From: an uncultured Mycoplasmatota bacterium
GTDB lineage: Bacteria; Bacillota_I; Bacilli_A; RF39; UBA660
DNA length: 30,946 bases
Assembly: GCA_947652325.1 (NCBI GenBank)
Contig: CANTCQ010000013.1
Location: forward strand, 1 to 30,946
Reading direction: 5' to 3'
Under the pieces are notes generated by a model that worked only from the letters and a program-made list of their open reading frames with translations, was not told the origin of the DNA and did not search any database. Numbering within the stretch: the first letter of the stretch is position 1; every line of letters begins with the position of its first letter. The position numbers and the translations under genes were made by a program. Of this stretch, positions 25,898-28,657 are shown in pieces.

Positions 25898-25922
25898 TTA
25901 AAAAAACTAGACAATTCTAGTT
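25898..25922 (-). terminator. Weak intrinsic terminator overlapping the PH-domain gene stop
   Basis: Minus RNA aacuag-aauugu-cuaguu (6-bp stem) followed by U7. Confidence 0.35.
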
Positions 25923-26319
25923 ACATAACTGTAGATTCCATCATTAATTTAAATACTTTTTTTAAATTTTCTTTTTTATCATGATTCATATTTACAAAAT
26001 TAATATGAAGTTGATAACTGCTATTTAAACTAAACAACAATTCAACTTTACCTGGAACATAATTAATAGCACTTGTAGATATAGAATTGTAAGGAACAAC
26101 ATGTACTTTTTTATAATAAAGACCAAGAGGGTCTCGGTCAAATAAAATCATCTTTTTATCAGTAAATAGCACATAATCTTTGCTATTTTTGTATGCAATA
26201 ATAATTTTTTCATGTTGATACACATATTCTTTTGTATATTCGGGCAAAGAAGTTAAATTTATTATTTCTTCTTTAAAATCAAAATACTTTGTTAATTCTT
26301 TAAATTTCATGTAAGCCAT
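25921..26319 (-). CDS. Bacterial PH-domain protein (YokE/bPH-like), cytoplasmic
   Basis: The pattern DYVLFTDKKMILFD...VHVVPYNSISTSAI is typical of bacterial PH domains. There is no signal peptide. The preferred start is ATG 26319, with RBS GAGGTGG overlapping the TAG stop of the upstream gene. Confidence 0.55.
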   Translation of the reverse strand: MAYMKFKELTKYFDFKEEIINLTSLPEYTKEYVYQHEKIIIAYKNSKDYVLFTDKKMILFDRDPLGLYYKKVHVVPYNSISTSAINYVPGKVELLFSLNSSYQLHINFVNMNHDKKENLKKVFKLMMESTVM

Positions 26320-26330
26320 ATAATCCACCT

Positions 26331-27275
26331 CTATTTTATTGTAAATTCCACATTAGTACTATTTGAAGCAGCATCTATTGCTACAATTTTATAATGCCCA
26401 CTTTCTGTAAAAGTCATATCAAACTTTCCATAATCAAAATCATTCATAGTATATTGTTTAATTATTTCTTCACGTCCATCATCATAAATACGTTTAATTA
26501 TAGAAAGCTTATTATCTTTAAATGTAATTCGAACTTTATCATATTTTTTTTCAATATTAATTTTTTCAGTACCTAATTCATCAGTAGCAGCGCTACTTAA
26601 TATAGGCGCAACATTATCAAAAGTCATTTTTGCTTGTTGCAAAATATTTCCAGCTTTATCATAAACCGTAAAAGTATAAAGCGTATTCATAGTAACTACA
26701 AATCTATTACTATTTTCTCGTACTGTTTCTCCAGTAAATCGATTATAAATAGTCATATAACCATAATTCGGGTCATTAATAATAATCTCCTCTTTAGAAA
26801 AGGTACCACCATTTACAAATTGAAAATTAGGTAAATTTTCGGGTTTATTATCATCTGGATTTTGTTCATGATTTCCATTATTATTTTCTGAATTTTCATT
26901 ATTATTATTATTATTATTATTATTATTATTATTGTTATTGTTATTGTTATTAAAATTAGGTGGCAAAATTGAATTACCAGTATTTGTATTATCACCAGTA
27001 CTATTATTATTTGGTTTAAAATTTGAATCACCATTATTTTGAGAAATATTGGTAACTGTTTCTTTATTTTCATTATCAAAAGAAAATGTATCTTCTACAT
27101 TATTAAAAGTATCATTATTAATATCATTTTCTTTCTTGCTATCTTCTATTTGTTTTATCGACTGACTTGAAAAAGTATCATAATCCTCATCTGTATCATT
27201 TGCAAAAACAAAAGTACCTGTACCCATCAACAGCAAAAATATTGCAGCTATAATTAACCCATAATTTTTATTCAT
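26331..27275 (-). CDS. Secreted protein: signal peptide, Asn/Asp-rich disordered linker with a poly-Asn tract, C-terminal Ig-like beta domains
   Basis: Signal peptide MNKNYGLIIAAIFLLLMGTGTFVFA/ND. The low-complexity region includes about 18 consecutive Asn. The C-terminal YTFTVYDKAGN and GHYKIVAIDAASNSTNVEFTI are D-x-AGN-type Ig-like strand motifs. Confidence 0.7.
   Translation of the reverse strand: MNKNYGLIIAAIFLLLMGTGTFVFANDTDEDYDTFSSQSIKQIEDSKKENDINNDTFNNVEDTFSFDNENKETVTNISQNNGDSNFKPNNNSTGDNTNTGNSILPPNFNNNNNNNNNNNNNNNNNNENSENNNGNHEQNPDDNKPENLPNFQFVNGGTFSKEEIIINDPNYGYMTIYNRFTGETVRENSNRFVVTMNTLYTFTVYDKAGNILQQAKMTFDNVAPILSSAATDELGTEKINIEKKYDKVRITFKDNKLSIIKRIYDDGREEIIKQYTMNDFDYGKFDMTFTESGHYKIVAIDAASNSTNVEFTIK
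26899..26952. repeat. Trinucleotide microsatellite (ATT)12(GTT ATT)3, which is (AAT/AAC)18 on the coding strand
   Basis: Read directly from the sequence. It is in frame and encodes the poly-Asn run. Confidence 0.95.
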
Positions 27276-27364
27276 TTTTATACCCTACCTATCATAAACA
27301 TTATACGTGGAATATAGAATTTATGTCAATATAAATTTAAATAAAAATAAGTTTTTTATATATT

Positions 27365-27892
27365 TCAAATAACTGTTAATTTATTAAGAGGCCAAAAACG
27401 AATAGCCACTTTTCCTATAATATCCTCTTTAGAAATTAAACCAATTTCCCTACTATCTAAAGAATTTAAACGATTATCCCCTAAAACTAAATATTTATCT
27501 TGTGGAATTTTATCATATCCTAAATCTTGTAAAGAAAAATCTTTATATTGCATTGTTTCTAAAATATATTTTTCATCTACTTTTTCATTATTAATATACA
27601 AAATACTATTTTTTATAAATATAGTTTCTCCAGGTAAACCAATAATTCGTTTTATTAAATATTTTGTATCTGCATATTTTAATGAAATAATGTCCCCTCT
27701 TTTTACTTTAAAAAAACGATATTGAAATTTATTTAAAATCAATAATTCTTCATTTTGTAAAGTAGGAGACATCGAATTTCCAACCACTTTAGTAATAGAA
27801 AAAACATATTGTATTAAAAACAGAAAAAAAACAATACAAACAATAATCTTCAATGAATCTTTTATAAACTCTTTAATTCCTAGCCAATCCAT
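27365..27892 (-). CDS. lepB: Signal peptidase I (S26A, bacterial P-type, Ser-Lys dyad)
   Basis: N-terminal anchor, GNSMSPTL (catalytic Ser box), YLIKRIIGLPGE (catalytic Lys box) and GDNRLNSLDSR; 175 aa. The gene ends on TGA. Confidence 0.9.
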   Translation of the reverse strand: MDWLGIKEFIKDSLKIIVCIVFFLFLIQYVFSITKVVGNSMSPTLQNEELLILNKFQYRFFKVKRGDIISLKYADTKYLIKRIIGLPGETIFIKNSILYINNEKVDEKYILETMQYKDFSLQDLGYDKIPQDKYLVLGDNRLNSLDSREIGLISKEDIIGKVAIRFWPLNKLTVI

Positions 27893-27934
27893 CTTACTTC
27901 CCCAATCAAGTTTTCTTTTAAAATTATATAATAT

Positions 27935-28585
27935 CTAGGCTACTTGTTCTGCAATAATCTTAATCGCTAATTCTACCTTAGGAGCATTCTCTCCTCCTAT
28001 GTAAGCGTCATTTCCATATTTTGTATCTGATTTATCATTTTCCATTTTAGCTTCATCTGTTTCACCTTTTTCAAAAGGCCATTCCCAACCGATAGTATAA
28101 GTACGATTTAAAATAGTATTTGGTGCATAAACCGTTCCCGAATTAAATGTAGCATTTAATTCTCCAACTAGCTCAGCAAGGGTTCCATTCACACCTACAA
28201 CATCCCCATCAAAAGTAAAAACTATCTTATCAATATCGTTAAAAGTAGTTTTAGAATTCACATCTAAACTTAAACTATAAGCAGTTTCGGGAGCACCTGT
28301 TAATGTAAACTTATAAGTTCCACTTGTTCCAGGGGCCACAACATTTTGATGGTCCGAAGAAAGAACCGCTCCATCTAAATAAGATTCTTGAAATAAATTT
28401 ACATATATAAAATGTCCATCAGTATCTTTTTCACCTTTTGTTACTCCAATATCCCACTTAGCAACTCTTGCACCATCTGATATTGTATCTAATTTTGAAA
28501 TATACTTTGCTAACGTTCCACTTACAAAAAATGAAGTAACAGTCGTAATTACTAAAATAATTAACAAAATTCCTTTCTTTTTCAT
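27935..28585 (-). CDS. Exported protein of unknown function, TasA/CalY(camelysin)-like by motif
   Basis: Signal peptide ending VSGTLAKYISK (compare the SipW-cognate motif GGTLAYFTD). VAPGTSGTYKFTLTG resembles LKPGD..K.F.l.N. The C-terminal IGWEWPFEKGETDE...KVELAIKIIAEQ parallels CalY WVQFEFVDDGKDQN...LNLEWTFNANQ. A strong RBS, AGGAGG, is upstream. Confidence 0.55.
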   Translation of the reverse strand: MKKKGILLIILVITTVTSFFVSGTLAKYISKLDTISDGARVAKWDIGVTKGEKDTDGHFIYVNLFQESYLDGAVLSSDHQNVVAPGTSGTYKFTLTGAPETAYSLSLDVNSKTTFNDIDKIVFTFDGDVVGVNGTLAELVGELNATFNSGTVYAPNTILNRTYTIGWEWPFEKGETDEAKMENDKSDTKYGNDAYIGGENAPKVELAIKIIAEQVA

Positions 28586-28648
28586 TTTCTTTTCCTCCTG
28601 AAATATTTTTTTATATAAAACAAAATTTAAAATTGCTTTTCACATAAA

Positions 28649-28657
28649 ATTATAACA
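28649..28657 (-). promoter_or_regulatory. Extended -10 (TGTTATAAT), candidate promoter for the exported-protein operon
   Basis: Minus strand TGTTATAAT lies about 63 nt upstream of the ATG at 28585. The -35 is weak (TAGAAA). Confidence 0.35.

Follow-up and report, generated by a model that had tools for sequence, protein, structure and literature searches.

Fibers of TasA, CalY and BsaA are the main protein scaffolds of Firmicute biofilms, and their maturation is tied to SipW, a signal peptidase of the endoplasmic reticulum (ER) type. The characterized substrates of SipW, namely TasA, TapA and BsaA, are fiber proteins, and a TasA/BsaA-type fiber system is recognized by several subunit paralogs that occur together with SipW peptidases of their own and with a member that is anchored (PMC7395162, PMC11580942). 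The BsaA/TasA superfamily has been described as very divergent and widespread, with signal peptidases, sortases and LPxTG proteins as neighbors (preprint PMC11580942), which matches the picture of the gene clusters given below. Here, we analyzed a four-gene cassette in a stretch of 30,946 nucleotides from an uncultured Mycoplasmatota bacterium (contig CANTCQ010000013.1; the whole stretch is called the window). Its genes, designated famA, S26, gene3 and bPH_1, encode a small exported protein, a P-type signal peptidase I, a larger secreted protein and a PH-domain protein. Judging from sequences, structure models and analogy with the systems above, we consider it fairly probable that the cassette encodes a secreted TasA/BsaA-like fiber subunit (of a pilus or a matrix), the peptidase that matures it and two accessory proteins.

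Like the tapA-sipW-tasA locus of B. subtilis (PDB 8AUR and 5OF1; PMC9674648, PMC10151520), the cassette combines a small exported subunit, modeled as a beta-sandwich, with a signal peptidase and an accessory secreted protein. The cleavage motifs are also alike, both showing G-T-aromatic-A (GT[FYL]A|KY in famA, GTWA|AF in TasA) and being followed by a conserved N-terminal segment. However, the peptidase of the window is P-type (TIGR02227) and not the ER-type SipW, a bPH_1 gene is added, and the genes probably form two transcription units. Similarly, famA resembles BsaA of C. perfringens (sipW-bsaA-bsaB-bsaC; PMC7395162, PMC11580942), a subunit of about 23 kDa that is remotely TasA-like and has several paralogs in each locus, for which a peptidase-linked donor-strand model exists and whose N-terminal segment is disordered in monomer models. 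Unlike famA of the window, BsaA is linked to SipW and has an N35-K74-E56 isopeptide lock; the invariant residues of famA are different ones (K27, K43, E100 and D187).

All four genes lie on the minus strand. famA (27935-28585, 216 aa) encodes the candidate fiber subunit, S26 (27365-27892) a peptidase of 175 aa that has kept its Ser/Lys motifs and carries a membrane anchor at the N terminus, gene3 (26331-27275) a protein of 314 aa in which a signal peptide is followed by an Asn-rich linker and, toward the C terminus, by beta-rich domains, and bPH_1 (DUF1696; 25921-26319) a protein of 132 aa. An earlier interpretation made from the letters of this DNA (the sequence-only reading) had reported these open reading frames (ORFs), separated by gaps of 42 bp (famA-S26), 89 bp (S26-gene3) and 2 bp (gene3-bPH_1) and preceded by an 823-bp ORF-free spacer, an extended -10 element and a strong ribosome binding site. 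We found the ORFs, the spacer (28586-29408, without any ORF of at least 50 aa), the -10 element and the ribosome binding site (AGGAGG, 28594-28599, minus strand, 8 nt before the famA ATG) as described. The gaps also follow from the ORF coordinates, except that the last one becomes 11 bp. Indeed, the start of bPH_1, previously set mechanically at a GTG (25921-26328, 135 aa), has to be moved to the ATG at 26319, because every ortholog begins with MAY(M/I)KFKEL and gene callers give 132 aa in the loci L171 and L172 (L-numbers designate the related loci that were compared with the window cassette).

The promoter-like site upstream of famA (28649-28678, minus strand) reads TAGAAA-18-TATAAT with a TG extension (TGTTATAAT, 28649-28657) and would drive famA and S26. 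The same TGTTATAAT is found upstream of famA in L005 and L007, and TGGTATAAT occupies that place in L002. A scan of the window for the promoter consensus gave 38 sites versus 36 expected, which is not above chance in such AT-rich DNA. The 89-bp gap between S26 and gene3 harbors a TTGACA-18-TATAAT sequence (27300-27329, minus strand) that matches the consensus at 12 of 12 positions and lies 24 nt upstream of the gene3 ATG. This perfect sequence is also present in the gap of L002, L005 and L007, 24 to 26 nt from the gene3 ATG, its TATAAT is retained in L008, L041 and L021, and terminator-like hairpins precede the gene3 promoter in relatives. Because a conserved perfect promoter splits the cassette before gene3, the four genes probably constitute two transcription units, famA-S26 and gene3-bPH_1, rather than the single operon proposed by the sequence-only reading.

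The order famA-S26-gene3-bPH_1 was found in the window, L002, L005, L007, L008 and L010, and in L009 and L011 the contigs end after the peptidase. This window-type cassette thus occurs in eight distinct loci, the window included, and in all of them famA and S26 are separated by 20 to 42 bp. The flanking genes are unrelated, with AbiEii and PPDK in L002, a collagen-like gene and FtsA/FtsZ in L007, and others in L008 and L010. The linkage is far beyond chance, and its conservation in relatives, which had been put forward as a check, extends to at least seven further loci. Sequence identity with the window copies amounts to 64-85% for bPH_1, 62-72% for S26, 36-44% for famA and about 33% (25-35%) for gene3, as would be expected from conserved machinery combined with fast-evolving exposed proteins.

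The window peptidase scored 167.1 bits on the P-type model TIGR02227 (cutoff 47), 156 bits on PF10502 and 9e-46 on Peptidase_S26; its score on the archaeal/ER-type model TIGR02228 was 30.5 bits, below the cutoff of 51.85. The motifs GNSMSPTL, KRIIGLPGE and GDNRLNSLDSR are intact, the membrane anchor is IIVCIVFFLFLIQYVF, and 16 of 16 cassette orthologs conserve the anchor and the motifs, which take the form GxSMxP(T/G)L, KR(I/V)(I/V)G(L/M/I)P and GDNRxxSxDSR. Among solved structures, the closest are true signal peptidases, 4NV4 (E 3.5e-26) and SpsB, with SipA (4N31) reaching only E 6e-5. This is in agreement with the first description of the enzyme as a complete P-type peptidase, and the arrangement recurs in the whole clade. 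As a negative control, we used non-cassette S26 peptidases from the metagenome scan: none of the 80 among the matches listed (identity of at most 49%) had a famA, gene3 or bPH neighbor, and no further cassette members occurred among the matches listed. To our knowledge, a P-type peptidase fold in a Gram-positive pilus locus has a single precedent, SipA/LepA of sortase pili, which is inactive. SipA reportedly serves the assembly of a sortase-dependent pilus as a chaperone, its catalytic Ser/Lys being absent. Like S26, SipA/LepA (streptococcal FCT and PI-2 pilus islands; PDB 4N31; PMC4049620) has the P-type signal-peptidase fold, and it lies inside a Gram-positive pilus cluster, where it is needed for pilus polymerization. 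In contrast to SipA, the window enzyme keeps all catalytic motifs, and its cassette has no sortase.

No Pfam or NCBIfam model matched famA significantly, including the TasA/CalY models of NCBIfam. Its lone weak domain match, DUF4179, is confined to the signal peptide, and a sequence-profile search of the PDB with famA gave no match. A word-indexed search had returned 11 relatives, as if the family were rare. This was not the case: with a profile built from these 11 sequences, an exhaustive search retrieved 7,772 cluster representatives (E up to 1e-3), including 1,410 with E up to 1e-30. A second indexed search gave 4,481 clusters, all nameless or annotated as "hypothetical protein" and without Pfam domains. 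In a scan of one genome per species, famA was present in 480 loci, which belong to gut metagenome-assembled genomes (MAGs) labeled Bacilli, Tenericutes/Mollicutes, Erysipelotrichaceae, Clostridia, Oscillospiraceae, Christensenellaceae and others. The loci L014, L028, L030, L033 and L080 are labeled "uncultured Muribaculaceae" and "Streptococcus pasteurianus" yet hold a Firmicute-type SipW-famA cluster; these labels are probably binning or labeling errors in the source MAGs.

To survey the genomic context of the family, we called ORFs in 80 species-representative famA loci and searched them with hidden Markov models of the cassette proteins and of two SipW-like seeds. On TIGR02228, these seeds score 74 and 86 bits, above the cutoff, and the Bacillus SipW model ranks first or second among their matches. 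A signal-peptidase gene lies within 150 bp of a famA gene in 78 of the 80 loci. SipW-like peptidases were found in 75 loci, 63 of which have two, and a P-type enzyme alone in 5. At least two famA paralogs are present in 63/80 loci and at least three in 30/80. The typical cluster of Clostridia reads SipW-famA-famA-SipW-famA, and its middle paralog (250-410 aa) ends with (L/I/V/S)PxTG, a membrane segment and a KR tail (L045-L086), the motif being, for example, LPPTG, VPQTG, IPKTG or SPDTG (e.g., L072 7768-8712 and L076 7876-8802). These C termini suggest that the anchored middle paralog is the sortase-attached base subunit of a SipW-processed fiber.

In Bacilli and "Tenericutes," the cluster consists of SipW, famA, a cadherin-like protein of about 950 aa (PF12733, 1e-31), a second SipW, famA2 and a protein of about 530 aa whose N terminus carries the same T-Y-S-K-Y motif. 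In six of these loci (L021, L022, L028, L039, L041 and L043), bPH lies just upstream and S26 just downstream of the two-SipW cluster, and gene3 follows S26 in the four that extend far enough (L021, L039, L041 and L043). In these four, the whole ensemble of bPH, two-SipW cluster, P-type S26 and gene3 spans 11-12 kb (e.g., L041 2719-11870) and is wholly unannotated. The two-SipW clusters of gut Firmicutes share with the window the famA family and, in the Bacilli/"Tenericutes" clade, the three accompanying genes. They differ from it by their two SipW genes, two to four famA paralogs and the cadherin-like (~950-aa) and ~530-aa proteins, none of which the window has. Because S26, gene3 and bPH accompany famA in two different layouts, their distribution argues for a functional link to famA systems. 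The module is nevertheless not self-contained, since the same three genes also flank these larger clusters and two MAGs with a window-type cassette hold a separate SipW cluster.

The signal peptide of famA (residues 1-26; 28508-28585, minus strand) ends with G-T-x-A before K27-Y28, which predicts cleavage at GTLA|KY. Across 87 sequences, T24, A26, K27 and Y28 are invariant, giving the family motif GT[FYL]A|KY, and a D-x-A-R-V-A-K-W block lies about 10 residues past G-T-x-A-K-Y. Residues 27-48 (KYISKLDTISDGARVAKWDIGV; 28442-28507, minus strand), the candidate donor strand, form the most conserved block of the family: the mean top-residue frequency is 0.70 over residues 23-48 versus about 0.36 over most of the core, and A39, R40, V41, A42 and K43 are conserved at 99% or more. 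Other invariant residues are A84-P85-G86, E100, W167, W169, D187-T188 and Q214. Two AlphaFold monomer models (predicted local distance difference test [pLDDT] values of 72.7 and 79.5) show a beta-sandwich with two helices. Both are unstructured at about residues 22-45, pLDDT being below 50 at residues 22-43 of the first and 24-32 of the second. With both models, the top Foldseek match in the PDB was the TasA fiber 8AUR (E 9.5e-4 and 4.2e-4, probability 0.99 and 0.90), followed by the TasA crystal structures 5OF1 and 5OF2 and by chaperone-usher pilin domains.

We propose that famA would leave the cytoplasm through Sec and stay tethered to the membrane by the signal peptide until the co-transcribed S26 cuts it at the predicted GTLA|KY site. 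The specificity of P-type signal peptidase I fits T at -3 and A at -1. These residues of famA are compatible with both P-type and SipW-type enzymes and reproduce the TWA|A pattern of TasA. In L007 (11577-14583), a window-type cassette is directly followed by two proteins of about 500 aa with the signal motifs GSYAFF(I/N)S, which gave sub-threshold matches to the N-terminal part of PF12389 (E 0.008 and 0.016), and the locus has no SipW; this pair weakly supports a P-type peptidase serving TasA-type signal peptides. Once freed, the segment K27-V48 (…ARVAKWDI…) would act as the donor strand that inserts into the sandwich of the following subunit, leading to a head-to-tail fiber. Donor-strand exchange has been shown for TasA (PMC9674648), and a donor strand has been modeled for BsaA, residues 28-38 of which are likewise disordered in monomer models (PMC11580942). 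In the BsaA model, cleavage by the peptidase frees the growing polymer from the membrane (PMC11580942), and by analogy S26 may, more speculatively, couple cleavage to assembly. gene3 and the cytoplasmic bPH_1 would be accessory factors made from their own conserved promoter, gene3 possibly as a surface or adhesive component.

Several results weigh against a TasA/BsaA-like fiber matured by S26. PF12389 (Peptidase_M73) matched neither the window famA at E up to 1 nor any of 87 family members (E up to 10) or 89 divergent paralogs (E up to 1). When the famA family was compared by hhalign with a 40-sequence TasA alignment, only the signal peptide and the cleavage motif aligned (MKK…GGTWAAF with …SGTFAKY, probability 14%). 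The alignment of famA paralogs gave a 24-column block (NLKPGD…F.L.N.GSLAIK with …APGT…Y.F.V.N..EVA, probability 26%), and hhalign detected no profile-profile homology across the mature domain. Furthermore, the template modeling (TM) scores of the Foldseek matches were low (0.24-0.36), and generic Ig-like sandwiches (MSP, SPD-2 and CBM35) scored nearly as well as TasA. By eye, three blocks appear collinear in famA and TasA, namely the cleavage motif, (A/K)PG(T/D)…F…(N/T)G and a C-terminal …A(E/T)Q. In our reading, famA probably works in the manner of TasA or BsaA, to which it may be very remotely related; membership in the TasA/camelysin family is not demonstrable. The TasA/camelysin-like character that the sequence-only reading gave to this protein therefore stands as far as the SipW-linked family, the cleavage motif and the best fold match (8AUR) are concerned, and falls short with respect to PF12389 and to the TM scores. 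The weak fold matches and the lack of detectable homology over the mature domain would also suit a monomeric beta-sandwich, secreted or surface exposed and serving in binding or adhesion, for which the linked peptidases only secure efficient export. We regard this as very unlikely: a monomer would hardly account for the extreme conservation of a 20-residue stretch that follows the cleavage site and has no order in the monomer model, operons with several paralogs, one of them LPxTG anchored, are typical of pilus systems, and the family is tied to SipW, whose characterized substrates are fiber proteins (PMC7395162, PMC11580942).

The role of S26 is the other point at issue. S26, gene3 and bPH are missing from some full SipW clusters (L087 and L089), and because of this, they are accessory rather than core to the famA family. 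In addition, the GT[FY]AKY motif is identical beside SipW-type and P-type peptidases, so a SipW encoded elsewhere could process famA, and the MAGs of L007 and L008 indeed carry a SipW cluster on another contig (L068 and L083). S26 might thus be a housekeeping P-type peptidase that is merely syntenic, with famA being an "orphan" subunit matured by the SipW of a distant cluster. This would be in keeping with its canonical sequence, closest to true signal peptidases such as SpsB, with its good conservation while famA drifts, and with its position at the 3' end of two-SipW clusters in six loci where each famA already has a SipW. On the other hand, the famA-S26 junction is tight and devoid of a promoter in eight loci with unrelated flanks, and the S26 clade lies beside gene3, famA or bPH in 16 of 16 sampled cases and never in the usual housekeeping neighborhood. 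The T at -3 and A at -1 of famA suit P-type specificity, and no second S26, SipW gene or SipW remnant was found within the 31-kb window. Taken together, we consider the housekeeping explanation rather unlikely, if worth keeping in mind, and prefer a fiber subunit matured by the adjacent S26. A bolder version of this preferred reading would be that an intact P-type peptidase replaced SipW as the polymerization-coupled maturase of a TasA-like donor-strand fiber, with bPH_1 as a new assembly or regulatory factor, and that a covalent lock resembling that of BsaA, with reversed polarity, might arise from E100, D187 and one of the lysines K27 and K43. We put this forward as a tentative and doubtful extension. 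On the whole, the sequence-only reading is partly supported: its general idea holds up well, operon structure and family membership have to be revised, and the dedicated peptidase stays a proposal.

Concerning the accessory proteins, the signal peptide of gene3 ends with …GTGTFVFA|ND, a canonical VFA|N site without the famA motif. The orthologs of gene3 measure 659-1103 aa, and the window copy aligns only to their N-terminal ~120 aa and C-terminal ~170 aa, making it by alignment a short form. It gave no match in Pfam and no sequence match in the PDB. The L008 ortholog passes Big_3_2 (31.5 bits, cutoff 23.3), and the C-terminal 170 aa of the window protein align to the C terminus of that ortholog, outside the Big_3_2 stretch. 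Because the mature N terminus is acidic, of low complexity and without the famA motif, it argues against a donor-strand role of gene3. We take gene3 for a secreted, probably Ig-like protein with an accessory or adhesive role, and not for a nucleator of the TapA kind. Its poly-Asn tract (26898-26951, minus strand; 18 AAT/AAC codons) is length polymorphic among assemblies of the same species, with 18 residues in the window, 16 in L171 and 15 in L172, and several short-read contigs end inside the tract. These differences may reflect true in-frame variation or an assembly artifact. The last gene had been assigned to the PH-domain proteins, and its product scores above the gathering cutoff of bPH_1 (PF08000; 41.8 bits, cutoff 27.7). 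This protein, the best conserved one of the cassette, lacks a signal peptide and membrane segments and matches PDB 3DCX and 3HSA, both without an assigned function.

The window as a whole is ordinary chromosome of a walled Firmicute, with a GC content of 24-32% and genes for two Mur ligases, MurB, GluRS, a cyclophilin, ABC transporters and a two-component system. A mobile-element origin of famA was considered and discarded, as it had no tblastn match in 72,556 plasmid or 50,697 phage records. In related loci, the equivalents of the 823-bp spacer are far shorter (88-373 bp). We searched the spacer for a riboswitch or another known RNA, without any Rfam match, and for a decayed SipW or cassette gene, for which the best tblastn match was only E 0.01 over 25 residues. 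Over the entire window, the sole Rfam match at the gathering score was a single tRNA gene (5034-5107, minus strand). The spacer contains a terminator-like hairpin (28928-28904, minus strand) followed by T8, about 480 bp downstream of the stop codon of an M18 aminopeptidase gene. The interval is free of ORFs, and the hairpin could belong to a long 3' untranslated region or a small RNA. Elsewhere, an ORF of 597 aa (8693-10486, minus strand) had no Pfam match at E up to 1e-5, and a Y-family DNA polymerase with IMS domains is followed by a YolD-like gene (17680-19237). In Firmicutes, this pair is often carried on mobile or SOS-inducible elements. Just past the high end of the window, upstream of the M18 aminopeptidase gene, L171 (1-1616) encodes a large serine recombinase (Resolvase/Recombinase/Zn_ribbon_recom, >544 aa). 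L172, from another strain, has other genes at this place, which suggests a strain-variable mobile element at the border.

SipW-linked TasA/BsaA-like fibers are an already known kind of system. What is new is, on the one hand, a very large family without any model and its stereotyped two-SipW architecture in gut Firmicutes and, on the other hand, a clade whose loci have no SipW and instead place an intact P-type peptidase, a probable Ig-like protein and bPH_1 beside the subunit. This clade represents a natural experiment, with a P-type peptidase in the usual place of SipW, and it offers a test of whether such fibers require SipW. The linkage also nominates bPH_1 (DUF1696) for a first functional context. 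If the famA proteins do form fibers, a major class of gut-microbial surface structures would now be hidden under the label "hypothetical protein."

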